Of a stretch of DNA of 64,000 nt, positions 1 through 42,100 are shown in pieces; positions within the stretch are counted from its first letter, which is position 1; each line of letters opens with the position of its first letter. Source of the stretch: a virus (taxonomy: Duplodnaviria > Heunggongvirae > Uroviricota > Caudoviricetes); the IMG/VR virus record IMGVR_UViG_3300035703_000003. One strand, given 5' to 3'. The position numbers and the translations under genes were made by a program. The notes below the pieces were generated by a model. That model saw only the letters and a list, made by a program, of their open reading frames with translations, was not told the DNA's origin and ran no database searches.

Positions 1-71
1 TGACGGTTGGTTACGATCCAACGCTACCGAGTCCACAGCTCAGTGTGCTACCATTATCACTACATCAGGAT

Positions 72-147
72 TGGCCCTTGGGGACGGAATCGAACCGCCG
101 ACACCATGCTCTTCAGGCATGTGTTCTACCAACTGAACTACCCAAGG
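72..147 (-). tRNA. tRNA-Phe (anticodon GAA), CCA encoded
   Basis: Hand-folded cloverleaf on the reverse complement: acceptor CCTTGGG/CCCAAGG, D-arm GTTCAGTTGGTAGAAC, anticodon loop CTGAAGA, T-loop TTCGATT, 3' CCA. Confidence 0.8.
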
Positions 148-154
148 ATAAACT

Positions 155-240
155 GGTGGGGATGGATGGATTCGAACCAACTCACCTCTACAGGAACGGA
201 TTTACAGTCCGCCGCGACTCTCCAACTTCGCCGCATCCCC
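155..240 (-). tRNA. tRNA-Tyr (anticodon GTA), long variable arm, CCA encoded
   Basis: Acceptor GGGGATG/CATCCCC, anticodon stem GCGGA/TCCGT with loop CTGTAAA, about 14-nt variable arm, T-loop TTCGAAT. Confidence 0.75.
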
Positions 241-254
241 AAATTTAAACAGTA

Positions 255-470
255 ACCTTTTGCACCTGCACGATGTTGAATCGAACTCATCGTTTAGGGA
301 CTCGAACCCTGCTTCATTTACTCTCTTGCACCAGCAAGATCCAACTTATAGTTGGTCTAAAATGCTACTCCTGGTGGGGAACGATCCCACACGGAAAGTC
401 TCGAACCTTTCCGTAACCTCTTGCAGGAGCGGGCCTTGGGACTTTCGAGATCCTTTAGGCTTTGTCTATT
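255..470 (-). ncRNA. Unresolved tRNA-like or structured RNA region (1-2 elements)
   Basis: Two T-loop-like motifs (GGGACTCGAACCC at 297-309; TCTCGAACC at 399-407) and an AACGATCCC hairpin (376-390), but I could not close canonical acceptor stems by hand. Confidence 0.3.
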
Positions 471-546
471 TGGTGCTTCTAGGAAGAATCGAACTTCCTT
501 CTAGACGCTTATCGGGCGCCTGCCTTTCCATTAGACAGTTAGAAGC
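471..546 (-). tRNA. tRNA, anticodon GAT (Ile) as folded; C at position 33 is atypical
   Basis: Acceptor GCTTCTA/TAGAAGC, T-arm GGAAG-TTCGATT-CTTCC, anticodon stem GGCGC/GCGTC with loop CCGATAA, CCA encoded. D-stem register is irregular. Confidence 0.5.
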
Positions 547-551
547 ATTAT

Positions 552-628
552 TGGTCCCGCATACGGGTTTCGAACCCGTTTCTCCGACTTGAAAGGCCAG
601 CGACCATCACCGAGTAGTCCTATGCGAG
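552..628 (-). tRNA. tRNA-Glu (anticodon TTC)
   Basis: Acceptor CTCGCAT/ATGCGGG (one G-U), T-arm ACGGG-TTCGAAA-CCCGT, anticodon stem CTGGC/GTCGG (two G-U) with loop CTTTCAA, CCA encoded. Confidence 0.6.
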
Positions 629-635
629 ATATATT

Positions 636-711
636 TGGTTGTCCAGGGTGGGATTGAACCACCGACCCCAGTCTTATCAGGACTGTGCTACTACCACTGA
701 GCTACTGGACA
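636..711 (-). tRNA. tRNA-Ile (anticodon GAT)
   Basis: Acceptor TGTCCAG/CTGGACA, D-arm GCTCAGTGGTAG, anticodon stem CAGTC/GACTG with loop CTGATAA, T-arm GGTGG-TTCAATC-CCACC, CCA encoded. Confidence 0.75.
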
Positions 712-1045
712 ATAAACTCTATTTTTACAAAAGGCAGCGAGGGGATATGCTCCGGGTCCCTAAACCTGCTCCTCTTTTCGTTACACTAGGGAATGTAACT
801 ACTTCTGCTTACTTGCTCTGCCTATTCTAGAAATAGAGTAATTGGTAGCGACATTTGGTAACGCTCCAAATCTTCAGCCTTATGAGAGCCGAGTCGGCAC
901 TTGCCGTGTCGCCAAAATATTATTAGCTTGCTGCTAGATTTTTACTCTGCCGTTATCGCCGGACATTTCATCTTCTAACACGCCCATTTGAGTTTGTTTA
1001 TAGTGGTTACTCGCAGTCTCGTTCCGCATTTCCACTTTAGCCTAA

Positions 1046-1079
1046 TAAAAAACCCTCCTAGTATCTCTACTGGAGGGTG
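1046..1079 (-). terminator. Rho-independent terminator (minus orientation)
   Basis: CCCTCC...GGAGGG hairpin followed by a T-run on the minus strand (A-run on plus), downstream of the 1290..2051 gene. Confidence 0.5.
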
Positions 1080-1289
1080 TCATTGCGTTTATGTGTATCT
1101 ACACTTATCCGCTATAACCCTCCGAGAACTCAAAGAGATACTCGTGGCGTTCAAAACGCTTAATGCTAATCATGTGTTTAGTATTGTGAGTCATCTCTTG
1201 ATTTCCTTTTGCTTATGTTAGTAATATAGTGCTTTTATTTATCATCGTCAACCGTTTTCTTTGACAATTTAGACGTATTACAAAAAAAA

Positions 1290-2051
1290 TTAGTCTTCTG
1301 TTTGAACAAAACTTGTTCTGCATATCCTAGGGTAATTTGTTAAATTTTCATAGGCTTCGTGTGGATCAGTAAGAAGTTTGCCGACAGTTATAGGTCCGTA
1401 GTTAGTGATACGTTTAGAATCTATATTATACCCTTTGTCTTCTATTGCTTCTCTATTATCAGTTACAAATTTTACAAATTCTTTGTCCCTGTTCCAATCA
1501 TGAGTAATCGCATTACCTCGCAGAGGAAATTGAACAAAAAACTTAGGTAAAACTTCGCCTCTTGTACTTGCGTTTGCTAATAGTGATATGTCTTTCTCGT
1601 CATATGCATTGGTTATATTAGATCCATAAGGGTTTGTCGATATTATGTTTTCATACATGTAGATACACAGATCTCCAAACTCGGCTTCTCCATTACAGTG
1701 TTCATAATCGTCGTCTGTGAACTTTTTTATTAAATCCTTACTTACAGGTAATAAATTAATATAAGAAACCGACAAACTATATTCTGTAAATTCCGGGTAT
1801 AACTTGTACGGTGTTTCGTTGATGCGAATCATACATAAATGCGGGACTCTAATAATTTTTTCCCACAATGGAATAATGTTTTGTATTGCATCCATACTAG
1901 TGTCAATTCGCCATTCAATAGTTGCTTTTTCAATGTCAGTAGTAGGACGTCTAATATTATAATTTACACTATCAGATACATCGCTAGGATTGTCATATAT
2001 AAAACCGTCGTAATCAACTATATCTGTTAATCCAACTACGAATTTTAACAT
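1290..2051 (-). CDS. Hypothetical protein, paralog of the adjacent 2055..2858 gene
   Basis: 253-aa ORF. Shares N-terminal K(F)V(V/I)GLTD and a central EKATIEW(R/Q)(I/L)D motif with the neighbouring ORF. Confidence 0.6.
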   Translation of the reverse strand: MLKFVVGLTDIVDYDGFIYDNPSDVSDSVNYNIRRPTTDIEKATIEWRIDTSMDAIQNIIPLWEKIIRVPHLCMIRINETPYKLYPEFTEYSLSVSYINLLPVSKDLIKKFTDDDYEHCNGEAEFGDLCIYMYENIISTNPYGSNITNAYDEKDISLLANASTRGEVLPKFFVQFPLRGNAITHDWNRDKEFVKFVTDNREAIEDKGYNIDSKRITNYGPITVGKLLTDPHEAYENLTNYPRICRTSFVQTED

Positions 2052-2054
2052 AAA

Positions 2055-2858
2055 TTAATCCTCTACTATATCAATTCGACAAACTTTATTATAAGTTTGT
2101 ATTTTTTCAAATGCGTCCTCATAATTACCAATTAAATCTCCTATAACAAGACCACCTGTTTTTGTTTTGTTATCTGATATATAGTATCCTTTAGATTCCA
2201 GAACGTCGTTGTTACTCAGCATCCAACTTTTCTGACTAATTGACATTGTCTTAGTTGGTGTTCTCGCAGAATTAGAAACAAAACTTATCGTAAATGCAGG
2301 GTATACTACACGTTCTGCAGGACTGTCTGATAACAAGTCTGTTGTGTTCATAGTTTGTGCATAGTCTAATGTGCTACGTATATTTATCCCATTACGTTCA
2401 TATGAACTTACACTATCGAGTTCTAAACTACCGTAGACTGGGATTCTATCTGTTGATATATTATCGTAGTCGGTATCTGTATATAATGGAAAATCAATGC
2501 CTGTAACAGGAATCAGCGTTGTTAGTTCTACAAAAATATCTGCATTTACTAATCTAGTTTCAGAAGAAATCCAGCTAGTATAAATCACTGACATCATATG
2601 CAACCTATTAGATTTAATGATTTTGTATACATTTATTAAGTTAGTAACAGCAGGTAATGTGTAGTCTAACTGCCATTCAATAGTTGCCTTTTCGATTGAT
2701 AATTCGATATTATTCATTAAATTATACGCATCTCGATCAGGATTTAGATCATCTAACTCAGGTCTAGCTGATTCATCTAGTAACCTATAATTAGGAATAA
2801 AACTTTCACTTTCTAAATCTGTCAGACCTATTACAAACTTCGCAGACATATTTTTCAC
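2055..2858 (-). CDS. Hypothetical protein, paralog of 1290..2051
   Basis: 267-aa ORF abutting 1290..2051 with the shared motifs listed above. Confidence 0.6.
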   Translation of the reverse strand: MKNMSAKFVIGLTDLESESFIPNYRLLDESARPELDDLNPDRDAYNLMNNIELSIEKATIEWQLDYTLPAVTNLINVYKIIKSNRLHMMSVIYTSWISSETRLVNADIFVELTTLIPVTGIDFPLYTDTDYDNISTDRIPVYGSLELDSVSSYERNGINIRSTLDYAQTMNTTDLLSDSPAERVVYPAFTISFVSNSARTPTKTMSISQKSWMLSNNDVLESKGYYISDNKTKTGGLVIGDLIGNYEDAFEKIQTYNKVCRIDIVED

Positions 2859-2886
2859 CTTTACTGTTTAGTAAATGTATTTAGTA

Positions 2887-2960
2887 TGGTGCCGGTAGAG
2901 AGAATCGAACTCCCGTCAGCTGATTACTAATCAGCTGCTAAACCACTCAGCTATACCGGC
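2887..2960 (-). tRNA. tRNA, anticodon loop TTAGTAA (anticodon AGT as read, Thr-type; A34 unusual)
   Basis: Acceptor GCCGGTA/TACCGGC, anticodon stem AGCTGA/TCAGCT, T-arm GGGAG-TTCGATT-CTCTC, CCA encoded. Confidence 0.5.
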
Positions 2961-2965
2961 ATTAT

Positions 2966-3040
<75 letters not shown>

Positions 3041-3124
3041 AATGCCTACGCCCGAAAGCGTAGGGTGCTGGTCCTCTGTGTTCTTATCTTGGGATCACAG
3101 CGGGGGTGTTAAACTTATACAAGT

Positions 3125-3637
3125 TTAATTCTCGTATAACGATTCGTAATCATCGTCTGATTCGTAATCGTCGTTGTCGACGTATTCTTGCTCTTCTGGA
3201 GCAGAACCATACGCTTTGTAATAGTCTTCATTTTCTTTTAGTATACGAAGATCAGTACCAGTTAATGCAAACTTAAGTTGAAAAAACTCATCGTAATTAT
3301 ACAACTCAGTGATAAACCAAAGTGTTCCACAACCTCCACCTGCTTTTTTAATAACACCTGTTTCGATTGATAGATCTTCAATGGCTCTTTTTAACTTAGC
3401 ACCATAGCTAGTAATGATACGTAAAAATTGTTTCTTACTTCCTAGCTTGTTCTTATCTTCTTCTGTTAATGGTGTGATGATTGCAGTGTTAGAATCATCA
3501 ATTACTACTAAGCAGTTTTTAACTTTGATACTGCCTTTAGTGTGGTTGCTATCTGGAGTTTCTTTGGTAGTCCAAGGAACGCTACAGTTTACGTGGTTTA
3601 CATAAAATGTTTCGCCACGGAACTTAAGAACCCACAT
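3125..3637 (-). CDS. Hypothetical protein with strongly acidic C-terminal tail
   Basis: 170-aa ORF. C-terminus is EEQEYVDNDDYESDDDYESLYEN. No recognisable catalytic motif. Confidence 0.55.
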   Translation of the reverse strand: MWVLKFRGETFYVNHVNCSVPWTTKETPDSNHTKGSIKVKNCLVVIDDSNTAIITPLTEEDKNKLGSKKQFLRIITSYGAKLKRAIEDLSIETGVIKKAGGGCGTLWFITELYNYDEFFQLKFALTGTDLRILKENEDYYKAYGSAPEEQEYVDNDDYESDDDYESLYEN

Positions 3638-3741
3638 AGGGATAGTATCATCTTCTAAGTGTTTTTTGTTAAAATGAAAAACTACATCTTTACAAGCATA
3701 TTCAATCTACGACATTTTATTCTCCTAATTGTTCGTATAGT

Positions 3742-3816
3742 TGGTGCGCTCTACGGGTAACGATCCCGTCTACTAAGGGTTAGAATCCTCTGACAATCCA
3801 TCTTGTCCAAGAGCGC
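3742..3816 (-). ncRNA. Atypical tRNA-like element (T-loop ATCGTTA; anticodon arm ambiguous, CUA or UCU)
   Basis: CCA encoded, acceptor GCGCTCT/AGAGCGC pairs perfectly, D-arm GACA-AGATGGAT-TGTC, T-stem ACGGG/CCCGT. The T-loop is non-canonical and the anticodon stem has two mismatches whichever register is used. Confidence 0.4.
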
Positions 3817-3822
3817 AAATAA

Positions 3823-3896
3823 TGGCGAGGGTGCAGAGAGTCGAACTCTGGCTTGCGGTTTTGGAGACCGCCGTGCTACCATAACACTTCACCGAC
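3823..3896 (-). tRNA. tRNA-Trp-like (anticodon CCA); acceptor stem has two mismatches
   Basis: T-arm CAGAG-TTCGACT-CTCTG, anticodon stem GCGGT/ACCGC with loop CTCCAAA, D-arm GTGT-TATGGTA-GCAC. Acceptor is GTCGGTG vs CACCCTC (T.T and C.C at pairs 2 and 3). Confidence 0.5.
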
Positions 3897-3902
3897 ATAA
3901 AT

Positions 3903-3978
3903 TTGGAGCGGGCGAAGGGGATCGAACCCTCGACAATCTGCTTGGAAGGCAGGAGCTCTACCGCTGAGCTACACCCGC
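3903..3978 (-). tRNA. tRNA-Gly (anticodon TCC)
   Basis: Acceptor GCGGGTG/CGCCCGC, D-arm GCTCAGCGGTAGAGC, anticodon loop CTTCCAA, T-arm GAGGG-TTCGATC-CCCTT, CCA encoded. Confidence 0.7.
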
Positions 3979-4272
3979 ATTGAATCTCTATATAAACCGG
4001 TTACTATCATCCGGAGTTACTATTTCGTTGCAACAGATTAGTTTTAGACGTTAAACGACACTCCATGTGGATTTTGTTTCGGTAACCACTCAACCATATC
4101 CCCAACTTCTCTGACCCCGGAATGCACGTCGCAGGCAGCTGGCCCTTTTCGCTAGGTCTAAACTAGTTTACTTCAGTAGTCTTGTTTGGCAGTTGCAACA
4201 AACGGTCCCGCTTACCGAAAGTAGTAGACCGCTTTAGCAGTCTTGTTGTCGTTGCTCAACACTACAATTTAT

Positions 4273-4349
4273 TGGTCCGAGTAGCAGGATTTGAACCCAC
4301 GACATCCTGGTCCCAAACCAGGCGCTCTACCAAACTGAGCTACACTCGG
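4273..4349 (-). tRNA. tRNA-Pro (anticodon TGG)
   Basis: Acceptor CCGAGTG/TACTCGG, D-arm GCTCAGTTTGGTAGAGC, anticodon stem CCTGG/CCAGG with loop TTTGGGA, T-loop TTCAAAT, CCA encoded. Confidence 0.75.
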
Positions 4350-4357
4350 ATACATTT

Positions 4358-4436
4358 TGGTCTGGGTGAAAGGATTTGAACCTTCGACCTCTCGCTTCCA
4401 AGGCGAGCACTCTAACACAGGCTGAGCTACACCCAG
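4358..4436 (-). tRNA. tRNA, anticodon TGG (second Pro-type copy)
   Basis: Acceptor CACCCAG/CTGGGTG, anticodon stem CTCGC/GCGAG with loop CTTGGAA, T-loop TTCAAAT, CCA encoded. Confidence 0.65.
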
Positions 4437-4443
4437 ATATTAT

Positions 4444-4519
4444 TGGCTGGGAAGGTAGGATTCGAACCTACAACCAACGGATTCAAAGTCCGCTACTCTA
4501 CCAATTGAGCTACTTCCCA
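4444..4519 (-). tRNA. tRNA-Gln (anticodon TTG)
   Basis: Acceptor TGGGAAG/CTTCCCA, D-arm GCTCAATTGGTAGAGT, anticodon stem GCGGA/TCCGT with loop CTTTGAA, T-arm GTAGG-TTCGAAT-CCTAC, CCA encoded. Confidence 0.75.
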
Positions 4520-4527
4520 TCAACCTT

Positions 4528-4604
4528 TGGTGCGGATGGAGGGACTCGAACCCCCAACATCTGCGTTCTAAGCGCAGCGACTCTACCAATTGGCCTACAT
4601 CCGC
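4528..4604 (-). tRNA. Class-I-shaped tRNA with anticodon TAG (Leu codon CUA), short variable arm
   Basis: Acceptor GCGGATG/CATCCGC, discriminator A, D-region GGCCAATTGGTAGAGT, anticodon stem CTGCG/CGCAG with loop CTTAGAA, 5-nt variable loop, CCA encoded. Confidence 0.6.
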
Positions 4605-4610
4605 ATAATT

Positions 4611-4694
4611 TGGAGGTCGGTGCGTGAATCGAACACGCTACTTTTCAGTGCTATGGATTTGCAATCCAACCCCTTACCATCCGGGCCACCGACC
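4611..4694 (-). tRNA. tRNA (84 nt, long variable region); anticodon loop probably TTGCAAA (GCA), assignment uncertain
   Basis: Acceptor GGTCGGT/ACCGACC pairs perfectly, T-arm GCGTG-TTCGATT-CACGC, CCA encoded. Internal arms could not be folded unambiguously. Confidence 0.45.
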
Positions 4695-4702
4695 GTTGTA
4701 TT

Positions 4703-4777
4703 TGGTGCTGGTAGAGAGAATCGAACTCCCAATCTACTCATTACAAGTGAGTTGCCTTACCATTGGGCCATACCAGC
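4703..4777 (-). tRNA. tRNA-Thr (anticodon TGT)
   Basis: Acceptor GCTGGTA/TACCAGC, anticodon stem ACTCA/TGAGT with loop CTTGTAA, T-arm GGGAG-TTCGATT-CTCTC, CCA encoded. Confidence 0.75.
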
Positions 4778-5011
4778 GATATATTCGTATACTTCTTCGT
4801 ATGTCTTAAACATACGTGTTCCGTGTTTGCTAACAACTCTTACAGAGGAGCCAAAGCACTGAACTAAACCAAAACCAGGAAACCTACCGTTGCCTGGTCG
4901 TCTGTTATTCCATCTATTACGTTTACGCACAGGTTGTGTATAAACGTGTTCTATTCCTAATAGTTCTCCACATCTTGTGTAAAACTGTTCTTTTTCTTCT
5001 GATGTTTTCAT
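4757..5011 (-). CDS. Small basic hypothetical protein inside the tRNA cluster (3' end overlaps tRNA-Thr)
   Basis: 84-aa ORF rich in R/K/N (RKRNRWNNRRPGNGRF). Its context is otherwise non-coding, so the call is tentative. Confidence 0.3.
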   Translation of the reverse strand: MKTSEEKEQFYTRCGELLGIEHVYTQPVRKRNRWNNRRPGNGRFPGFGLVQCFGSSVRVVSKHGTRMFKTYEEVYEYIAGMAQW

Positions 5012-5062
5012 ATTGTCCTCTCACATATCTTTACGGTTTTAATGGCTTAACCGAAAACCTAT

Positions 5063-5137
5063 TGGAGCGGGTAACGGGATTCGAACCCGTGACCTGGTGC
5101 TTGGCAAGCAGCCGCTCTACCCCTGAGCTACACCCGC
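5063..5137 (-). tRNA. tRNA-Gly (anticodon GCC)
   Basis: Acceptor GCGGGTG/TACCCGC, D-arm GCTCAGGGGTAGAGC, anticodon loop TTGCCAA (one C.C in the stem), T-arm ACGGG-TTCGAAT-CCCGT, CCA encoded. Confidence 0.65.
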
Positions 5138-5144
5138 ATTTATT

Positions 5145-5220
5145 TGGTGGACCCTAGCGGGATCGAACCGCTGACCTACGGCTTGCAAAACCGTCGCTCT
5201 CCCAACTGAGCTAAGAGCCC
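5145..5220 (-). tRNA. tRNA-Ala (anticodon TGC)
   Basis: Acceptor GGGCTCT/AGGGTCC (two G-U), D-arm GCTCAGTTGGGAGAGC, anticodon stem ACGGT/GCCGT with loop TTTGCAA, T-arm AGCGG-TTCGATC-CCGCT, CCA encoded. Confidence 0.7.
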
Positions 5221-5659
5221 GTATTCTATTTATAAACTACGTTTAGAAGATACACATAAACTTAGCATAACGCTCTCCGGACTAAGCCTCTGTTAGTATA
5301 TATGTGTATCGTCAAAACGTAATGTTTTGCCTAGCTTGAGATTACAGCGTAGGACGGGAGCCTTTGAGCATTACCGTTGGCCTTGCGAGCCACGTTCTCT
5401 CGTTATCCACAGAAGCCTGTTACGGTCATCCTGTATCTCCCAATGGTGCCTTTTTTGGAGAGTGGCGTTTCTCTCGTCGCACGTTGCTACTCGTCCTTCT
5501 ATCCTTCGTCTGCCTTGCGAGCAGTTCAGAGTCGCTAAACCCTTACGCTATCTTTCCGAACAACTACATCAGCCTTGCGAGCATCCGTAGACCACATTCT
5601 CTTTCGAGTGTGGCATTAACCACCTTTCACAACGTACCGGGACAGTCTTTCGCTTTTGT

Positions 5660-5730
5660 TTCAATAGTAGGAGTTGAACCTACAATCCATCGTTCTGAAT
5701 ACGATTGCATTACCGTTATGCAATATTGCG
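5660..5730 (-). ncRNA. tRNA-like element with anticodon loop ATTCAGA (anticodon UCA, would read UGA); acceptor weak, no CCA
   Basis: T-arm GTAGG-TTCAACT-CCTAC, 5-nt variable, anticodon stem ATCGT/ACGAT perfect, D-arm GCAT-AACGGTA-ATGC. Only 5 of 7 acceptor pairs form. Confidence 0.35.
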
Positions 5731-6181
5731 AACCTACTTCGATGTGCTGTCCCAGTTGCACCATATCTTGTTAGATACAGTATACAACACACCGACTGTC
5801 TTTTGCCTTGCGGGCTACTCAACGTCACTTCAAGTATCCGGGGCCTAACCCTTCCACTCTTGTAATGCTACTACGCCTTTCCTTGCGGGGTCAGACAGTG
5901 TAGCTACCTGTTAGTATTCTCCATTCGTTGCTTTGGCTGTATGCTGTTCGGGCGCCAACCCTCTTACTACTCACCGACCGGCTCTGTAGCTATCCTTTCG
6001 GACAACACACGCAACTTACTGGATACCGCCTTTCTACGGACGGGACTTGCTTTCGCATTGCGAGTCAAGTCTAACCCAGGCTTGTATAGCTGGACCATTG
6101 CTGGCGCAAGTTTATAGGAAACCTTGCTTTGGGTGCATTGCTGCACTTACCCTTAAGTTGGACGCTATACCGCCCATATAA

Positions 6182-6292
6182 ACTGTGTTTAAAACTATAC
6201 ATTGTGGAATCGAACCACCGAGCCGACCACAAGGTCGACCTGTTCCATAACATCGGCGTGGCCTACGCCTTATGTATAGTTTAAAACACAGT
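6182..6292 (-). ncRNA. Structured element: 22-bp perfect inverted repeat enclosing about 65 nt with a T-arm-like hairpin and two further hairpins
   Basis: ACTGTGTTTAAAACTATACAT (6182-6203) is the exact reverse complement of 6270-6291. The interior contains GTGG-AATCGAA-CCAC, CGACC-ACAA-GGTCG and GGCGT-GGCCT-ACGCC. Confidence 0.5.
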
Positions 6293-6346
6293 CATTACTA
6301 AATTTTCAAAGAGCGTATAAGCAACTTGTTTGCTGCTTATGTTCTT

Positions 6347-6375
6347 AATATAGTATGTGTTGCTGTCATTGTCAA
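6347..6375 (-). promoter_or_regulatory. Sigma70-type promoter TTGACA-N17-TATATT, minus strand, reading into the ncRNA locus
   Basis: Reverse complement reads TTGACAatgacagcaacacatacTATATT. It belongs to the repeated promoter-leader element 6301-6380. Confidence 0.6.
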
Positions 6376-6575
6376 CACCTTTTTTTATCTTTTTTTATTT
6401 AATTACTTGAGCCTGTTGCCACAACATCAACAGCATTATCTACAAATTTTCGGCCGTGTAGTTATGGACTTGCGTCCTTGGGGTAAGTCATTACAGTTAC
6501 TTGGAAGGATGCATTTCCTTTGTTACTACAGCCGCTAAACCGTAGCACCTTTCACTTACTGACACTCAAGTATTT

Positions 6576-6649
6576 TGGCGACCCTACGGGGACTCGAACC
6601 CCGTTCACCAGGTAGACAGCCTAGTGTAATACCCATATACCATAGGGCC
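6576..6649 (-). tRNA. tRNA-Asp (anticodon GTC)
   Basis: Acceptor GGCCCTA/TAGGGTC, anticodon stem CTAGG/CCTGG with loop CTGTCTA, T-arm CGGGG-TTCGAGT-CCCCG, CCA encoded. Confidence 0.65.
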
Positions 6650-6655
6650 AATTTA

Positions 6656-6746
6656 TGGCGGACACTCAGGGATTCGAACCCTGGGACGCCTTTCGACGCC
6701 GTCGGTTTTCAAGACCGGTGCAATAATCCATCTCTGCCAAGTGTCC
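6656..6746 (-). tRNA. tRNA-Ser (anticodon TGA), long variable arm
   Basis: Acceptor GGACACT/AGTGTCC, anticodon loop CTTGAAA, variable-arm hairpin GGCGTC-GAAA-GGCGTC, T-arm CAGGG-TTCGAAT-CCCTG, CCA encoded. Confidence 0.7.
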
Positions 6747-6749
6747 GTA

Positions 6750-6835
6750 TTGCTTTAGACTGGGCTGTTTGCAGCTTTAACCCGGCTGGTTACGGGTGCG
6801 TTCCTCACAAGGGCCGATTATATCACAGTCTAAAC
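6750..6835. ncRNA. Short inverted-repeat-bounded element (9-bp IR, TTTAGACTG/CAGTCTAAA), possible small RNA
   Basis: IR flanks about 63 nt lying between two tRNA genes. No tRNA fold was found. Confidence 0.25.
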
Positions 6836-6836
6836 T

Positions 6837-6912
6837 TGGTTGCGTTGGGTGGGACTCGAACCCACGATCTTTTGGTTATGAGCCAAACGAGATGCCGCTT
6901 CTCTACCCCGCA
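6837..6912 (-). tRNA. tRNA with anticodon CAT (Met, fMet or Ile2 type); acceptor has two G.A mismatches
   Basis: T-arm GTGGG-TTCGAGT-CCCAC, anticodon stem TTTGG/CCAAA with loop CTCATAA, D-arm GAGA-AGCGGCA-TCTC. Acceptor is TGCGGGG vs CAACGCA. Confidence 0.5.
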
Positions 6913-6927
6913 ATAGTCCTATTATAA

Positions 6928-7015
6928 TGGCGGAGCGACTGGGAGTCGAACCCAGTGAGGGATTGCTCCCTCTACAGATTAGCAATCTGCTGCATTACCA
7001 TCCTGCCCCCGCTCC
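6928..7015 (-). tRNA. tRNA-Ser (anticodon GCT), long variable arm
   Basis: Acceptor GGAGCGG/TCGCTCC, anticodon stem GCAGA/TCTGT with loop TTGCTAA, variable hairpin GAGGGA-GCAA-TCCCTC, T-arm CTGGG-TTCGACT-CCCAG, CCA encoded. Confidence 0.7.
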
Positions 7016-7022
7016 GTATATT

Positions 7023-7098
7023 TGGCTCCCTGACGTGGGCTCGAACCACGGACCCGATGATTAACAGTCATCTGCTCTACCAACTGAGCTATCAGGAA
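7023..7098 (-). tRNA. tRNA-Asn (anticodon GTT)
   Basis: Acceptor TTCCTGA/TCAGGGA, D-arm GCTCAGTTGGTAGAGC, anticodon stem GATGA/TCATC with loop CTGTTAA, T-arm CGTGG-TTCGAGC-CCACG, CCA encoded. Confidence 0.75.
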
Positions 7099-7329
7099 AC
7101 ACTATGCTTTTGGCTCTACTCAGCGTCATCCAGAGCGATTTAACTAGAGGGGTGCTTTTCTCCAGTACCGTTATTCTTGTGGCTTACGGAGTTATCCTCC
7201 TGCACTAGTTTATTCTATAAATACACGATGATAAAAAAGACTTGGTCTATTATATTACCGTGTATTATTGTTGTCAGCTTTTTTCTAGCTGTAAGCAATC
7301 TTTTTACCACATGGCATAATCATCAAATG

Positions 7330-7697
7330 CTGTTGGAAATACTTCACAGCACTGAATAATTCAATTGCTCGTTCTACTTACACATACACCCCAGCATTTC
7401 TGCGTAGTCCGCAAAGTGTTGGGTGGCCTACCCTCATTCACAGGATGTATGTGAAAATAGAATCGTTGTCTCTACTTACAAGTATGTTAGTCTGTCTTTG
7501 AAACAGCGAGCGCCCGTCGGCTTTTTACATAGGTCAACCCAACCACGCACGGAGTCGAACCGTGCTACTCCCATTTCTAACATACATGTAAGTAGAGATT
7601 TGATAATGTATGTTGGTTGCATACATCGTCTACTTACAATCCCTATCATCGCTTTCGCTAAGGAATGTGATAAGCTATAATAGCTTACCGTAATACG
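7330..7697 (-). ncRNA. Second structured non-coding locus downstream of the duplicated promoter-leader element (T-arm-like CACGG-TTCGACT-CCGTG, nested hairpins)
   Basis: No credible ORF. Inverted repeats are TGTAAGTAGAG/CTCTACTTACA and ATGTATG...CATACAT. It lies downstream of the 7698-7777 element, which is homologous to 6301-6380. Confidence 0.35.
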
Positions 7698-7777
7698 TCT
7701 AAATTGTCAAAGAGCGTGTAAACAACTTCTTGCTTACTGTGTTAACTTAGCGTCTTGTTTTTGCTTTGTCAACAACT
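7698..7777 (-). repeat. Promoter-leader repeat, copy 2 (homologous to 6301-6380)
   Basis: Shared blocks are CAAAGAGCGT(A/G)TAA(G/A)CAACTT...TTGCT...GTCAACA. Reverse complement gives TTGACA-N17-TAAGTT. Confidence 0.5.
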
Positions 7778-7836
7778 TTTTTCTTTTTTGTTTGAGTGCT
7801 TCAATCTTTGTTACAAGTTTCTGCGTCCCTTACTAG

Positions 7837-7868
7837 TTATATATAGTGTATGATGTCTTGCCTGTCAA
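7837..7868 (-). promoter_or_regulatory. Sigma70-type promoter TTGACA-N17/18-TATATA (minus strand)
   Basis: Reverse complement reads TTGACAggcaagacatcatacacTATATA and shares the ...ACACTATAT core with the other early promoters. Confidence 0.5.
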
Positions 7869-7875
7869 GTATTAT

Positions 7876-7935
7876 TTTGTCTTTTTTTTTGCCATTAAAA
7901 AAGCCCCGCAGCTTTCGCTTGGGGCCTTGGTGTTC
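7876..7935 (-). terminator. Terminator-like GC hairpin with flanking T/A runs
   Basis: GCCCCGCAGCTTTCGCTTGGGGC hairpin. On the minus strand it is followed by TTTTTTAATGGCAAAAAAAAA. Confidence 0.4.
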
Positions 7936-8294
7936 GAACTTTATAAGTTGTTCAGCTACCTCGGCCCGCCTGCACGGAATCGACACTAGGATTGCCCCCT
8001 AGTGACCATGTATTCTGTGCTGTGGTTCCGCATGTAATCATTGAACTGTTTATTCCTTATATAAGTTTATTTATCATCTGAGATAAAATTATCTTACACT
8101 TTTATTTATCATCTTGAAAATATTTAGTCTGCGTCCGGCAACTGCAAAGCCTGAGAAAGCGTTTATCGGTTTTACCAGCAGTGTTAGGACTTCTTACTTC
8201 GAATTATCTTATCGGTCCATTTTTACGCCTTAAGTAGAGAATCTCAATTATAAACTACAAGACGCAGACTAAAACTTTGGTGCCCTAAGGCGTG

Positions 8295-8735
8295 TTACAT
8301 TCCTAGTTTATACGAGCTGTTGCTCACAGTAAACGATTGCTTCCAAGACCATTCGTCTAGAACAAGTTGGTTAAACACATCGTCTTCAAGTTCGATTACG
8401 TCTTCAACACTTAGTTCAAGCATACGAGCTGCACGATTGTAATCACTTTCGTAACTACGTGGTGCAGAAGGGATACCTTTAATCTCTTTAATTTTTTCTA
8501 GATCACCTGTGTTTGCTAGTTTTGCATTTTCTTTTGTGATCTTAACAGTAAGTGTTTTGTAATCGTTAACTGCTTCATCGTATTCAGCAATGTGCTTAAT
8601 CTTGTTTTGACGAACAATCATTAGGAGCTCGTCTTTTTTCATCTTTACACTACGCATAGCGTTTCTCCCATTCATACGCATATTAAACTTCCTTAAAAGA
8701 ATATTTGGTGCCCCCGGTCGGACTCGAACCGACAC
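8295..8735 (-). CDS. Hypothetical protein
   Basis: 146-aa ORF in the minus-strand gene series, ending next to a tRNA. Confidence 0.55.
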   Translation of the reverse strand: MSVRVRPGAPNILLRKFNMRMNGRNAMRSVKMKKDELLMIVRQNKIKHIAEYDEAVNDYKTLTVKITKENAKLANTGDLEKIKEIKGIPSAPRSYESDYNRAARMLELSVEDVIELEDDVFNQLVLDEWSWKQSFTVSNSSYKLGM

Positions 8736-8782
8736 TATGCGGATTTTGAATCCGCCGACTCTACCAATTGGCCTACAGAGGC
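8706..8782 (-). tRNA. Class-I-shaped tRNA with anticodon CAA (Leu codon UUG)
   Basis: Same scaffold as 4528..4604 and 10426..10502: acceptor 3' strand CGGGGGC, discriminator A, D-region GGCCAATTGGTAGAGT, T-arm GTCGG-TTCGAGT-CCGAC. Anticodon stem GCGGA/TCCGC with loop TTCAAAA, 5-nt variable loop. Confidence 0.6.
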
Positions 8783-9069
8783 GATATTAAAACAGAGAGG
8801 AAAGAGTGAGTAATAAAGTTCTAGCAAAGTGCATGTAGCGTGGTATACAGACCTACTTTTGCAAAAAACAAATCGCAATCTACAATGCTTATATTTCCGA
8901 TTATCAACATGCAGTGTCAATTAAGACGAATATAATAAAATCGGAACACATAGCTGGAGACCATAAACGATCATGTTATGCAAGTAACGCTTGCCCGCCT
9001 CTATTCTCTTTTCTCTTTCCTACTCTGGGTAGTTTCGGGCAAGTTGCCTTGCCCTGGGTCTACCAAAAC

Positions 9070-9669
9070 TTATTCTACAATACCTGCACGAGCAAGGAAA
9101 TGCTCTGCTTCATCGTCAAGCACAATTGTAGTGCTTACGTTAAGCTCTAGCAACGAGTCTTGCAGTGCAGTCTTTACTCGCTTTAGACGAGCGAGTTCGG
9201 CTTTGAATTCTTCGATCTTCTCTTTATCGAAGATGTTAGTAGTGACAGTGTCGTCACCGAAACGACCGTAAACGTCTGCTTTGTCACGACCTTTAATCTT
9301 GCCTAGCTTACCGACAAGAACATCGTTAGCTACTGCAGGCTCTAGCTTGCTTAGACGCCCGTATAGCTGCATGTCTTTGTCTAGCATTGCTACATCAGCT
9401 AGCAAGCTATCAATACCGGAAGCGGCGTTAGCATGGGCTACTGCCTTGCGAATTTCGTAAAGAACGCCTAGCAGCTTGCCACGAGTAGCAAGATGTGTCT
9501 CAAAGCGGTTAGTAGCTTCGGACACCTTTTCGCTAGGCTTTTCGAATTCGTTAACCGAAACTTCTGTGCCTAGATCTAGTGTGCCTAGCATTTCATTAAT
9601 TGCGTGTTGTAGTGCGTTTGCTTTACGAAGTGAGATTTCCATTACTTTGTCCTTTGTGTTCGTTTTCAA
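9070..9669 (-). CDS. Hypothetical protein
   Basis: 199-aa ORF with overlapping genes upstream and downstream, consistent with operonic packing. Confidence 0.55.
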   Translation of the reverse strand: MKTNTKDKVMEISLRKANALQHAINEMLGTLDLGTEVSVNEFEKPSEKVSEATNRFETHLATRGKLLGVLYEIRKAVAHANAASGIDSLLADVAMLDKDMQLYGRLSKLEPAVANDVLVGKLGKIKGRDKADVYGRFGDDTVTTNIFDKEKIEEFKAELARLKRVKTALQDSLLELNVSTTIVLDDEAEHFLARAGIVE

Positions 9670-10246
9670 TTTTCTTTGCGATTACTTTGTGTAGACCTGG
9701 ATTAATAACTAGCATTTGTGTTACAACGTTTTCACGAATATAGTTTCTAATGTATGAAGTGTCAAGATTTGATTTGTCTTCAACCCAACTTACATTTTTT
9801 CGTTTACACCAATCAACAAACTCGTGCTTTCTGTTTAACCTAAACGGCCTAATAACGTTTTCATTTTGGTAAGGAATAATTTTACCCTCACCGTGCATAC
9901 TTGACCAAATCCACGTTTCTACACAATCATCCAAATGATGACAAGTGATAACAGGCTTTTGCCAGGCATTTAAAACTTTATAACGTTCGTTCCTCCAGTG
10001 TTCTTCTTGGCTTACGCCCTTAGGAACAACAGTGTTGATATACGAAGTGTATAGTTTTAGTTTAGTATCGTCTGCATACTGCAAAAGAAACTTGTGTGCT
10101 TGTTCACTTGTTTCTGTGCCGTGATGCACAAATTGTAGAGTAATACGATGATTTCTTTTTAGAAAATCAACAATAGCCATACTATCAACGCCGCCACTGC
10201 AAGCAATTACAACGTCTCTGGGTAGTTTGCTTTGGACTTTAATCAT
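9623..10246 (-). CDS. tilS: TilS-like tRNA(Ile)-lysidine synthetase catalytic domain (PP-loop ATPase)
   Basis: PP-loop SGGVDS near the N-terminus. Blocks FVHHGT, CHHLDDCVETW and WVEDKSNLDTSYIRNYIR resemble the TilS N-domain motifs (HVHHGL, QHLDDQCETF, WIEDESNQDDSYDRNFLR) as I recall them. It lies immediately downstream of two CAU tRNAs. Confidence 0.7.
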   Translation of the reverse strand: MIKVQSKLPRDVVIACSGGVDSMAIVDFLKRNHRITLQFVHHGTETSEQAHKFLLQYADDTKLKLYTSYINTVVPKGVSQEEHWRNERYKVLNAWQKPVITCHHLDDCVETWIWSSMHGEGKIIPYQNENVIRPFRLNRKHEFVDWCKRKNVSWVEDKSNLDTSYIRNYIRENVVTQMLVINPGLHKVIAKKIENEHKGQSNGNLTS

Positions 10247-10262
10247 CGCATTACTCTAGTTT

Positions 10263-10338
10263 GGTGGAAGGACTGGGACTCGAACCCAGATAGTTACGTT
10301 TATGAGACGTATGCATTCACCAATTATACTATCCTTCC
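10263..10338 (-). tRNA. tRNA with anticodon CAT (copy A; Met, fMet or Ile2)
   Basis: Acceptor GGAAGGA/TCCTTCC perfect, anticodon stem TACGT/ACGTA with loop CTCATAA, T-arm CTGGG-TTCGAGT-CCCAG, CCA encoded. Confidence 0.7.
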
Positions 10339-10342
10339 GATT

Positions 10343-10419
10343 TGGTAGGGGATACCGGACTTGAACCGATAACCTGCCGATTATGAGTCGGACGCTCTAA
10401 CCAATTGAGCTAATCCCCC
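10343..10419 (-). tRNA. tRNA with anticodon CAT (copy B; Met, fMet or Ile2)
   Basis: Acceptor GGGGGAT/ATCCCCT, D-arm GCTCAATTGGTTAGAGC, anticodon loop CTCATAA, T-arm ATCGG-TTCAAGT-CCGGT, CCA encoded. Confidence 0.7.
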
Positions 10420-10425
10420 TAACTT

Positions 10426-10502
10426 TGGTGCCCCCGGTCGGACTCGAACCGACACTACGCAGATTTTAAGTCTGCTGACTCTACCTATTGGCCTACAAGG
10501 GC
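10426..10502 (-). tRNA. Class-I-shaped tRNA with anticodon TAA (Leu codon UUA)
   Basis: Same scaffold as 8706..8782 (acceptor 3' strand CGGGGGC, D-region GGCCAATAGGTAGAGT, identical T-arm). Anticodon stem GCAGA/TCTGC with loop CTTAAAA, 5-nt variable loop. Confidence 0.6.
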
Positions 10503-10509
10503 GTAGTTC

Positions 10510-10592
10510 TGGTGCGGGCACCCGGACTCGAACCGGGACGCATTGAGCAAGAGATTTTAAGTCTCTCGTGGCTACCATTTCACCATGCCCGC
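10510..10592 (-). tRNA. tRNA-Leu (anticodon TAA), class II with long variable arm
   Basis: Acceptor GCGGGCA/TGCCCGC, anticodon stem AGAGA/TCTCT with loop CTTAAAA, about 11-nt variable region, T-arm CCCGG-TTCGAGT-CCGGG, CCA encoded. Confidence 0.65.
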
Positions 10593-10605
10593 ATAAGTTG
10601 TTTTT

Positions 10606-10682
<77 letters not shown>

Positions 10683-39142: not shown

Positions 39143-42100
39143 TCAACCGTTTAATTTACTTTCTAACTGTGCTACTCTTTCTGCTAATTCCTTGTTTTGA
39201 ACTGTCAGCTCTTTAACAGCTTCAATTAGTAAACCAACCATGTTACCATATGCAACAGTTTTTATACCGTCTTCGTTTGTGATTACTACTTCTGGAATTA
39301 CTTCTTCGACTTCTTGTGCAATAACACCCATATGGGTTTTATTATCGTCTAAGTCTTTTCTAGTAAATGTAACACCACGAAGTTTTAATACTTTTGTTAA
39401 CGGATCTGATATTATTTCAATATTATCTTTTAATGTAACATCTGAGTAAGCACACACGTCACCTGTAGCAGTAAATGTTCCGGTATAAGAACCTGTCATT
39501 GCTACAGTAGGAGACCAACCTTCGCCTGCTGTTCCTGTTACCGAGATGCCGTTACCAGCAGTAAGTCCTGCTACATAGTTACCGGTTGTATCTGTTCCAA
39601 GAGCAACACTATTTGCAGCAATAGTAGCAGTGATTGTGATATCTGCACTTCCGTTAAACGAAGCAGATCCGGTTACATCTCCACCGAGTGAAATTGTTCT
39701 TGCTGTTGTAAGAGTCGCAGCAGAACCTGTAATATTGATGCCCCAGTTGCCAGAAGCGCCAGAACCAGTTAGTGTTGGGGCAAAGGATGTGTAATTAGTT
39801 CCGTCTAATATTGTGCGCCAAGCTGTTAAAGTACCGTTATTTCTACCCCTTACTGCTAATTGACCAGTCCTATAATCGCCAAATATTTGATGAACCCAAC
39901 TAGAACTATAAGCCTGTGAATATAAAGCACCGTCTGTTTGCCCCAGAAGAGAAACCCCAGTAATATAGCCTATGCCGTTATCATTGATAGTATCTGGACC
40001 AGCTCCATTTGTAGAATTTCCGTTCCTGAATTCAATGCCATCGATTTGGCCGGCAGTGGTTGCGCTAGAAGCATTACCACTCAAGGTAGCAGTAATAGTT
40101 CCTGCACTAAAGTTTCCACTTGCATCACGTGCAACAATGGCGTTAGCAGTATTTGCATTTGTTGCAGTAGTAGCGGAGTTTGATACCTTACCTGCAGTTG
40201 AAATTGTTGCTAATTTTGTGTCAACTATACCTGCGGCGGAATTAATATCTGCGTTAACAATCGAATCTGCAGTGATAGCCGCTGATATTGCAATGTTAGC
40301 ACTTCCATTGAACGAAGTAGCAGTTCCTGTCACATCGCCGCTTATCGCAATAGTCCTAGAAGTTTGAAGTGTGGTTGCTGTAGTTGCGTTTCCGCTCAAT
40401 GCCGCAGTAATTGTTCCTGCAGAGAAGTTACCGCTACTATCACGGAATACAATTGTGCTGCCAGTGTTAGCATTAGTTGCGTTCGATGCTACTGTAAAAG
40501 TAGAACCGCTAGATTGGTTAGCAGTAAATGTTGCACTGCCGCTTAACCCGTTTCCAGAAACAGCCAATGTTAAAGTTCCGTCGTTAGGAACACTGTATTC
40601 TGCACTTGTTGGTATATTAAAGTATGTCGAACCATCGTTTGTAAACTGCCAACGATCTGTTGTTTCATTCCATATTAATGCAGTGTTAGTGCTAGTTCCA
40701 CGTTCAATTTCGATGCCTGCGTTTTGACTAGGAGTTCCGGTTTCATCGGCATTTAAGGTGATAATATTATCACCTACGTTTAATGTAGTTGTATTAACAT
40801 AAGTTGTAGTCCCTGTTACAGTTAAGTTACCATATATGTTTACTGTATTAGTTGCACCCGAAGTGCTTGACCCGATGTTAATTGCAGTTGTTGATCCACT
40901 TGCACCGCCGGTTCCGAGGTTAATGGTCTTTGTTACACCACTAGCATTTGTTCCGGTTGCAATATTAAGTGTGTGAGCAACAGTCGATCTGTCAAGAGTG
41001 ATAGTTCCGGTTTGTGAAGTGCCACCTATTGTTAATGCACCCGATGTTTGTGCAGTTGCAAAGTCGACTGCAGCGGTTGTATTGCCACCTAGTAATGTAG
41101 TTGCAACGTTGCCTGCAGTAATAGTTCCGCCTGATACAGTTAAGTTGCCGGTAACAGTTCCTGCGCCGGCAACGTTAATTAAACCGCCAACAAATAAGTT
41201 ACCGTTCATACCAACGCCGCCGTCAACAGTTAACGCACCAGTGTCAACAGTTGTTGATGCTGTAGTATTTGTGATTGCAATAGCAGTTGCAGTTGTAGCA
41301 CCACGACCTGTTACAGATGAAAGAGTATCTGCTTCTGTTCCTGTTATAGTAATTGTGTTAGCATCAGTTCTTGTTACAGATACAATACCGCTACCAACAA
41401 AAGCAACGTTATCTGTAGATGCATCGCTACCTGTTAATCTTAATACAGTATTAGTCGCAGTTTCTGCGCTTATAGTGTATGTTGTATTTGAACCAGCAGC
41501 GGTCCAAGCTAGCTGACCCGAGCCGTTTGTTTGTAGTAAGTAACCGTTAGAACCATCGGATGTTGGCCATCTTAACCCGTCGAGTTGGATGTATCCGGAT
41601 CCGTCTGGTGTGATTAAAATGTTACCGTTACTTCCTACTGCACTAACAATGCTTTGACCGTTAACATCTAAGTTACCACCAAGTTGCGGAGTTGTATCTT
41701 CTACAATATTTCCAGTTAAACCGCCCGATGTAATAAGTGCTGCACTGAAGAAAGTCCCGCTACCATCCACTGTTCCTTTTTGTAAAACTTGGCTTGTGGT
41801 GTTTGAAGTAAATACCGTAAAATCAAGATAATCTGTTGTGCCATTTAGATATATCGTTCTATTAAGATTTGGTGATTGACCGGTAGAAGTGTTAATTATT
41901 TCTTGACTTAAAGCATATGAATTTCCGTTTTTCCTAATTTGCAAATTAGTTTGATTGTTGGAAATTACACCAGCTACCCACCATGCAGATAAAGTAACAT
42001 CATAATATCCAGCAATAGTCGGAGTAAACCGTTTAGTTGTTGGGTTCCACCAACTTTGTGCATCATCATAATCCACAAAATTAATTAATGTGTCTGCACC

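Follow-up and report, generated by a model that had tools for sequence, protein, structure and literature searches.

The window analyzed here, a stretch of 64,000 nucleotides (nt) of viral DNA (Caudoviricetes; IMG/VR record IMGVR_UViG_3300035703_000003), contains three tRNA genes in which the leucine anticodons UAG, CAA, and UAA are combined with a variable loop of only 5 nt. Judged from their sequences, these three genes very probably encode ordinary leucine-accepting tRNAs. They are members of an existing, widespread, and little-discussed family, tRNA-Leu with a short variable loop (type I tRNA-Leu), and they are under-described rather than exceptional. An earlier note on this DNA had proposed the three genes from hand folds. 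ARAGORN and Rfam, the tRNA model of which has a threshold of 29 bits, call them at the same coordinates, and a long-armed tRNA-Leu gene is called beside the short UAA gene:

4528..4604, minus strand: type I tRNA-Leu(UAG), 77 nt, CCA encoded; ARAGORN; Rfam tRNA 60.4 bits
8706..8782, minus strand: type I tRNA-Leu(CAA), 77 nt, CCA encoded; ARAGORN; Rfam tRNA 54.7 bits
10426..10502, minus strand: type I tRNA-Leu(UAA), 77 nt, CCA encoded; ARAGORN; Rfam tRNA 54.4 bits
10510..10592, minus strand: class II tRNA-Leu(UAA), 83 nt, 12-nt variable region; ARAGORN; Rfam tRNA 56.5 bits

The hand folds and the three anticodons are borne out by ARAGORN and by a positional parse, and the automated calls place no long variable arm in any of the three genes. 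According to the positional parse, the variable loops are AUGUU (UAG gene), AUAGU (CAA gene), and GUAGU (UAA gene), the D region UAGGCCAAU(U/A)GGUAGAGUC and the discriminator A73 are common to all three genes, and the CAA and UAA genes have the same T arm GUCGG-UUCGAGU-CCGAC and the same 3' acceptor strand CGGGGGC; apart from the loop sequences, these details had been described before. The D arm GGCC-AAU(U/A)GGUAG-AGUC, present as GGCC-AAUUGGUAG-AGUC in the UAG gene with its acceptor GCGGAUG/CAUCCGC, consists of a D-stem of three base pairs (10:25, 11:24, and 12:23) and the 9-nt D-loop AAUUGGUAG, with C13:A22 unpaired. The short genes carry U8:A14, A15:U48 (the variable loop ends in U48), and G18G19, and their T-loop UUCGAGU gives U54:A58. 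Acceptor stem (7 base pairs) and T stem (5 base pairs) are fully paired, resulting in a 7/5 cloverleaf, and pair 3:70 is G:C, C:G, and C:G, so that no G3:U70 occurs. The features expected of a type I bacterial or phage tRNA-Leu, i.e., a loop of 4-6 nt, a leucine anticodon, a leucine body, and relatedness, are found in the short genes, as are the A73, elbow, and D-loop determinants of canonical tRNA-Leu, whereas the long variable arm of at least about 10 nt that characterizes canonical class II tRNAs is absent from them and present at 10510-10592 (12 nt).

Single-sequence minimum free energy folds return the cloverleaf with a 5-nt variable loop, although with weak z-scores of -1.1 to -1.8. Weak z-scores of this kind are usual for tRNAs; the real support for the folds is provided by the tRNA models and the covariation. 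The weak z-scores might be taken to mean that the genes are prediction artefacts or decaying pseudogenes, but this seems hardly credible, as two independent detectors agree, synteny is kept in related contigs, and covariation is strong in every helix (see below). The paralogy of the three genes that had been proposed is reflected in a core identity of 65-89% among them, compared to at most 61% between them and other tRNAs of the window, the short UAA gene being a recent paralog of the CAA gene (89% core identity). The UAA anticodon does reside on two scaffolds, the 83-nt class II gene at 10510-10592 and the 77-nt short gene; as the anticodon loop is CUUAAAA in both, any functional difference must sit elsewhere in the body.

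For Escherichia coli, the determinants of leucine identity are A73, A15-U48, G18G19, A20a, G18:U55, G19-C56, and U54:A58, and the long arm is dispensable, an arm-less minimal tRNA-Leu still being charged (PMC9976931). The short genes of the window keep the full E. coli-type leucine identity set, which means that they represent tRNA-Leu bodies lacking the arm rather than class I tRNAs of different identity whose anticodon has changed. All three would most likely function as elongator tRNAs that accept leucine and belong to the type I tRNA-Leu family.

Other identities were tried and rejected. The three genes do not encode suppressor tRNAs, since the anticodons UAG, CAA, and UAA (5'-3') are complementary to the sense codons CUA, UUG, and UUA rather than to stop codons; suppressor anticodons would be CUA, UUA, or UCA (5'-3'). 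An anticodon-shifted derivative of tRNA-Gln, or of some other class I tRNA in which the D-loop has a similar AAUUGGUA, does not fit either, as tRNA-Gln has a D-stem of 4 base pairs and a loop of 8 nt, is at most 56% identical overall to the short leucine genes, and carries the AAUUGGUA motif in a different register. An alloacceptor-shifted class I tRNA was dismissed because the core identity to non-leucine tRNAs of the window is 61% at most and because the D arm is of the leucine type, and an allo-tRNA or tRNA-Sec-like fold (8/4 or 9/3) because the stems are 7/5, fully paired, and covarying.

Spread of short tRNA-Leu in phages and bacteria

Searches by blastn with the 77-nt genes find gapless matches annotated as tRNA-Leu in many cultured phages. 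Short tRNA-Leu genes were verified with ARAGORN in six of these phages:

Pseudomonas phage vB_PseuGesM_254: anticodons CAA and UAG
Pseudomonas phage phiPsa374: anticodon UAG
Sinorhizobium phage Phosso: anticodons GAG and CAA
Vibrio phage 1.081.O (Schizotequatrovirus): anticodon UAG
Bacillus phage P59: anticodons UAG and UAA
Mycobacterium phage I3: anticodons CAG, GAG, and CAA

In each of them tRNA-Ser, and tRNA-Tyr if present, is long-armed. Within the tRNA-cluster stretches examined, the leucine genes of the Pseudomonas, Vibrio, and Sinorhizobium phages are all short-armed.

A search pattern for the family, composed of the D-loop, a leucine anticodon loop, and the short spacing, finds at least 120 matches in IMG/VR. 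Among the matches listed, from IMG/VR plus two cultured-phage loci, there are 198 short tRNA-Leu covering all six leucine anticodons, often with two to four of them per viral contig. As the pattern fixes the D-loop, 66 short leucine genes that lie at the same loci but outside the pattern were checked independently; A73 is present in 61 of the 66, U8:A14 in 59, A15:U48 in 57, and G3:U70 in none. For comparison, among 916 other class I tRNAs at the same loci A73 is found in 56% and A15:U48 in 27%. In a gapless alignment of 116 distinct family members, pairing within the helices amounts to 96-99%, and each of the 20 helix pairs shows variation on both sides. The covariation score of this alignment is 0.953; shuffling lowers it to 0.219, with none of 500 shuffles reaching 0.953, and sliding the partners leaves no more than 0.19. 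Pairing at 13:22 departs from the standard in 115 of the 116 sequences.

The earlier note had considered short-armed tRNAs with leucine anticodons unusual in bacteria and their phages, a view that does not hold for the phages. Frequencies in viruses were taken from a sample seeded on the 3' end of G73 tRNAs and not on leucine (119 loci, L313-L431, comprising 1.07 megabases and 597 good tRNAs), and the leucine-pattern scans, with at least 120 matches each, were not used for the ratio of short to long genes. Besides 38 long and 2 intermediate forms, 19 of the 59 distinct tRNA-Leu in this sample are short, i.e., about one third, and all 19 possess A73 together with A15:U48. In contrast, short forms are absent among the 64 tRNA-Ser and the 18 tRNA-Tyr (Fisher p = 9e-9). 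SerRS and bacterial TyrRS need the long arm, whereas LeuRS does not. The arm is lost only where the synthetase can do without it, which constitutes the strongest comparative argument for charging by LeuRS.

The variable-arm length of phage tRNAs is labile toward longer forms as well. In the same sample, 8 of 22 tRNA-Ile are tRNA-Ile(UAU) of 90-96 nt with a long variable region that contains a recurring CAGAUUAG- or CAGAUAAUUGG-like motif, 6 of 29 tRNA-Asn are long-armed, and scattered tRNAs for Gly, Lys, Met, and Gln have variable regions of 11-25 nt. Loci with such lengthened arms include L326, L345, L368, L401, L425, and L428.

In GTDB species genomes the same pattern again has at least 120 matches. 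The matches listed are of two types, tRNA arrays, in which 8 kilobases may hold as many as 34 tRNAs, and single genes, the latter at 66 loci or more. The single genes mostly have the anticodon CAA, in Bifidobacterium, Gardnerella and allies, Streptomyces, Nocardiopsis, Mobiluncus, and Senegalimassilia, or the anticodon UAA, in Auritidibacter, Paracoccus, Rhodobacter, and others. Throughout the Bifidobacteriaceae among them (L192-L266) the short CAA gene is single-copy and situated in housekeeping contexts. Short UAA genes of Paracoccus yibinensis (L243) and Rhodobacter sp. KR11 (L268) have genes for MetRS, arginase, and a CoA transferase as neighbors and, lying among housekeeping genes, are not obviously prophage cargo. 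Single chromosomal genes are therefore found in Actinomycetota and in some Alphaproteobacteria, and type I tRNA-Leu is much wider in bacteria than the single published Streptomyces case.

That published case, the chromosomal type I tRNA-Leu(CAA) of Streptomyces coelicolor, resembles the window's genes in having a 5-nt loop on a bacterial tRNA-Leu body with U8:A14, A73, and G18G19 (PMC6614811). It differs in that it is a single isoacceptor of a high-GC chromosome, served by a LeuRS with a special leucine-specific domain, whereas the window, from a jumbo phage of 40% GC, has three isoacceptors. The window's CAA gene and a Streptomyces chromosomal type I tRNA-Leu(CAA) (L244) agree at 61 of 74 positions (82%); the two have the same D-loop, and their T arms are identical. 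Core identity reaches 94% between the UAG gene and L267, and 82-86% between the CAA and UAA genes and L215. The cultured tRNA-rich phages share with the window the 74-78-nt shape, the D-loop motif, A73, leucine anticodons, and the arrangement in tRNA arrays, although they belong to other lineages and their DNA similarity to the window is limited to the tRNAs themselves.

Canonical class II tRNA-Leu, as in E. coli or T4, has A73, A15:U48, the D-loop AAUUGGUAG, the 3-base-pair D-stem, unpaired 13:22, the elbow pairs, and the leucine anticodons in common with the window's genes. Its variable region is 10-19 nt long, compared to 5 nt in the window's genes, and it carries G9 with G13 or A13, whereas most short genes have A9 and C13. 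Animal mitochondrial type I tRNA-Leu is also short-looped and relies on A73 and A14 as determinants (PMC9976931). However, mitochondrial tRNAs possess degenerate elbows and a LeuRS of their own, while the phage genes have canonical D and T loops. A sequence relationship between phage short tRNA-Leu and mitochondrial tRNA-Leu is not expected. LeuRS of S. coelicolor (ScoLeuRS) does not charge human mitochondrial tRNA-Leu(UUR) (PMC6614811).

In a review, tRNA-Leu is stated to be long-armed everywhere save in animal mitochondria (PMC9976931), and the Streptomyces type I tRNA-Leu has been called rare (PMC6614811). Mycobacterium tRNA arrays hold a short-loop tRNA-Leu(TAG) (PMC6582537). Our literature searches on type I or short-variable-loop tRNA-Leu of phages found no paper discussing the phage case; the useful literature was limited to the Streptomyces study, a passing remark on a Mycobacterium tRNA array, and general reviews on identity. 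The three genes should be annotated as ordinary short-loop tRNA-Leu and not as anomalies, suppressors, or decoys, and the family as a whole represents a natural experiment on which class II synthetase-tRNA pair can dispense with the arm.

Conservation in relatives and descent of the short form

Relatives of the phage were gathered by means of the TilS-like open reading frame (ORF) at 9623-10246, which yields 66 viral contigs; in the nearest four (L123-L126) protein identity is 79-90%. The long UAA gene, followed immediately downstream by the short UAA gene, is kept in all four. The short UAA gene is identical in L123 and L124 and diverged yet still short in L125 and L126, and the long-armed UAA gene has the same core in L123-L126, differences being confined to the loop of the variable arm. 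The short CAA and UAG genes are also kept in L124 and L125, where the gene order of the tRNA array is the same. Between the window and L124, pair 7:66 of the UAG gene shows a compensatory change from G7:C66 to A7:U66. For the CAA gene, U4·G69 and U6·G67 in the window are replaced by C4:G69 in L124 and by full Watson-Crick pairing in L125.

More distant relatives have only long-armed leucine genes, and in L126 a long-armed CAA gene occupies the syntenic site of the short CAA gene, which makes the short genes a feature of a sub-clade in this phage group. Between the L126 gene and the window's CAA gene (73% core identity), the T arm is shared and so is the larger part of the acceptor stem. An in-place deletion of the arm was rejected as the origin of the window's CAA gene, since the L126 gene differs in D arm and anticodon stem; on comparison of the two sequences, the change looks like a replacement or recombination.

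On average, the best match of a short leucine gene is 85% identical when it is another short gene and 70% when it is a long one. A9 together with C13 occurs in 195 of 301 short leucine genes among the matches listed, including the three of the window, whereas long-armed genes have G9 and G13 or A13. Besides this lineage, there are short genes that are near-copies of long-armed genes save for the arm, with core identities of 92% (L066/L114) and 86-87% (L273/L256, L133/L193, and L007/L087), indicating that the arm was lost repeatedly and that one lineage spread widely. The short shape would accordingly be read as a derived state of tRNA-Leu that arose several times through loss of the arm, and the A9 and C13:A22 lineage, very widespread in phages and present in some bacteria, includes the three genes of the window.

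Charging, decoding, and alternative roles

Among the fates considered in the earlier note, the identity set and the likeness to the Streptomyces gene favor charging by LeuRS by way of A73 and tertiary elements. Nothing found favors a decoy role or the attachment of another amino acid. Host LeuRS would charge the short tRNAs through A73 and the elbow of D-loop and T-loop, employing U8:A14, A15:U48, G18G19 in the 9-nt D-loop on a 3-base-pair D-stem, and U54:A58. As bacterial LeuRS needs no long arm, its loss would be tolerated. The charged tRNAs would read UUA, UUG, and CUA, perhaps also further CUN codons by U34 wobble, and the presence of a long and a short UAA gene would most simply provide extra supply for UUA. 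Codon usage was counted over 45 ORFs (17,135 codons). Leucine is encoded by UUA (38.0%), CUU (20.9%), CUA (20.5%), UUG (12.2%), CUC (4.8%), and CUG (3.7%), GC content at third codon positions being 0.27. The codons cognate to the leucine anticodons of the phage (UAA twice, UAG, and CAA) make up 71% of its leucine codons, and the duplicated anticodon pairs with UUA, the commonest of them. Codon supply for an AT-rich phage is the simplest reading.

Experimental evidence for leucylation exists for the S. coelicolor type I tRNA-Leu(CAA), which is charged by its own LeuRS with a kcat/Km of 6.25 s-1 uM-1, i.e., at about half the efficiency of the type II tRNA (PMC6614811). Several points weigh against leucine charging for codon supply as a full account of the window's genes. 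LeuRS of E. coli and one Streptomyces LeuRS fail on the S. coelicolor type I tRNA-Leu(CAA), the leucine-specific domain of LeuRS deciding whether it is charged (PMC6614811). The nearest cultured relatives of the phage infect Proteobacteria and, given the failure of the E. coli enzyme, charging in a proteobacterial host cannot be assumed. Moreover, dosage by itself accounts neither for the second UAA copy having another scaffold nor for the retention of the long/short tandem throughout the five related genomes. Even so, charging by host LeuRS gains in likelihood from two observations: such genes are carried by many phages of Pseudomonas, Vibrio, and rhizobia, and they occur on Rhodobacterales chromosomes. 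The question raised is which host LeuRS enzymes accept short tRNA-Leu, given that E. coli LeuRS does not accept the Streptomyces substrate.

The failure of E. coli LeuRS in vitro (PMC6614811) and the proteobacterial hosts of the nearest cultured relatives would also suit tRNAs that are not or poorly charged and act as decoys or regulators, either by sequestering host enzymes or nucleases or by serving as signals of uncharged tRNA. Such a role appears quite improbable. The anticodons fit the most used leucine codons of the phage, and anticodon stems and loops, acceptor stems, and the encoded CCA are kept with compensatory changes, as decoding predicts. In addition, all six leucine anticodons are found on the short scaffold in phages, Pseudomonas, Vibrio, and Sinorhizobium phages have short-armed leucine genes only in the tRNA-cluster stretches examined, and alphaproteobacterial chromosomes hold short leucine genes among housekeeping genes.

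Mischarging with another amino acid is unlikely as well, and a recoding in which a non-leucine amino acid would be inserted at CUA, UUG, and UUA in phage genes, for which the unusual shape alone might speak, has next to no probability. Of the synthetases that ignore the anticodon, SerRS needs the long arm, which is absent, and AlaRS depends on G3:U70, a pair found neither in the three genes of the window nor in any of the 66 family members checked independently. The remaining synthetases use anticodon bases that do not occur here (PMC9976931). As UUA, UUG, and CUA account for 71% of leucine codons in conserved structural genes, their reassignment would be drastic, and a canonical tRNA-Leu(UAA) adjoins the short genes.

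A different proposal accepts charging with leucine and assigns the advantage to the shape, which would let the tRNAs escape nucleases or toxins acting at the long arm of class II tRNAs, the UAA tandem serving as a hedge with one efficient and one resistant copy. Phage tRNAs are known to rescue translation after defense systems have cut host tRNAs. Retron-Eco7 PtuAB cuts E. coli tRNA-Tyr in the variable loop, and phage tRNA-Tyr escapes by means of a different loop (PMC12673091). The conservation of the tandem in the window and in L123-L126 and the repeated origin of short from long forms, as in L066/L114, would agree with such a counter-defense. We nevertheless consider it unlikely, as the literature searched yielded no defense system that targets the variable arm of tRNA-Leu, as phage counter-defense cannot explain the single genes in housekeeping contexts of Bifidobacteriaceae, Streptomyces, Paracoccus, and Rhodobacter, and as neutral loss of a dispensable arm fits the pattern equally well. 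Owing to the chromosomal short genes, an adaptive reason for the short shape is not required. The broader proposition that arm loss is adaptive, hiding a leucine-charged tRNA from class II-acting nucleases, toxins, and modification or turnover enzymes while the UAA tandem hedges charging efficiency against resistance, is likewise rather doubtful. If it were correct, proteobacterial LeuRS would charge short tRNAs in vivo, contrary to the in vitro result with the E. coli enzyme.

The tRNA array and other features of the phage

The window derives from a jumbo myovirus with a GC content of about 40%; its terminase shares no more than 58% identity with the terminases of PA5oct, Phosso, and Atu_ph07, which are jumbo myoviruses too. 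It encodes a T4-type large terminase, a tail sheath, a gp15-like sheath stabilizer, UvsX, SSB, and two giant structural proteins. When the DNA of the tRNA region was compared with cultured phages at near-identity, only scattered matches of single tRNAs and no related genome were obtained. The leucine genes form part of the following array:

1..10682, minus strand: tRNA gene array with 31 Rfam tRNA matches; holds four leucine genes, a GOLLD RNA, and a TilS-like gene

ARAGORN finds 30 tRNA genes between 72 and 10682, all on the minus strand. Pfam scans of the small ORFs around the tRNAs find nothing tied to tRNA repair or to LeuRS, the only matches being a TilS-like PP-loop protein and RpiB, and an Rfam scan of the window outside the array gives no match.

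A full-length GOLLD RNA (RF02032) is situated inside the array at 5333-5795 on the minus strand (193.7 bits, threshold 150). It encloses a tRNA-like element at 5658-5730 (minus strand), called as tRNA-SeC(tca) by ARAGORN and matching the Rfam tRNA model with 48 bits. Its equivalents by gene order in L124 and L125 have an irregular anticodon loop and are called '???(tgat)' and '???(at)'.

The tRNA-Cys(GCA) gene at 4611-4694 (minus strand) presents the reverse anomaly to the short-armed leucine genes. It is 84 nt long, its variable region of 14 nt forms a hairpin of three base pairs with a GAAA tetraloop, U8 and A14 are replaced by G8 and G14, and position 73 is U. A class II-like tRNA-Cys with varying GNRA loops and stems is kept in many relatives (L124-L126, L128, L137, L146, L153, L157, and others). 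We know of no description of a long-armed tRNA-Cys.

The PP-loop ATPase encoded at 9623-10246 (minus strand, 207 amino acids, PF01171), by which the 66 related viral contigs were collected, is similar to the N-terminal domain of TilS. Two tRNAs with CAU anticodons (10262-10419, minus strand) directly adjoin its gene, and AUA accounts for 29% of the isoleucine codons of the phage. This arrangement suggests that the phage carries a tRNA-Ile2 of its own as well as the corresponding lysidine synthase.

Two further stretches of the array, 5800-6570 and 7100-8295, contain no ORF of 90 amino acids or more, and a search of them with Rfam at permissive settings gave only one weak match, which stays below the threshold and overlaps the tRNA at 6579-6649. 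They may encode undescribed non-coding RNAs. In the structural module, ORFs of 2672 amino acids (39143-47161, minus strand) and 1938 amino acids (51217-57033, minus strand) flank the gene for a virion protein of 971 amino acids with an endosialidase-type beta-barrel.

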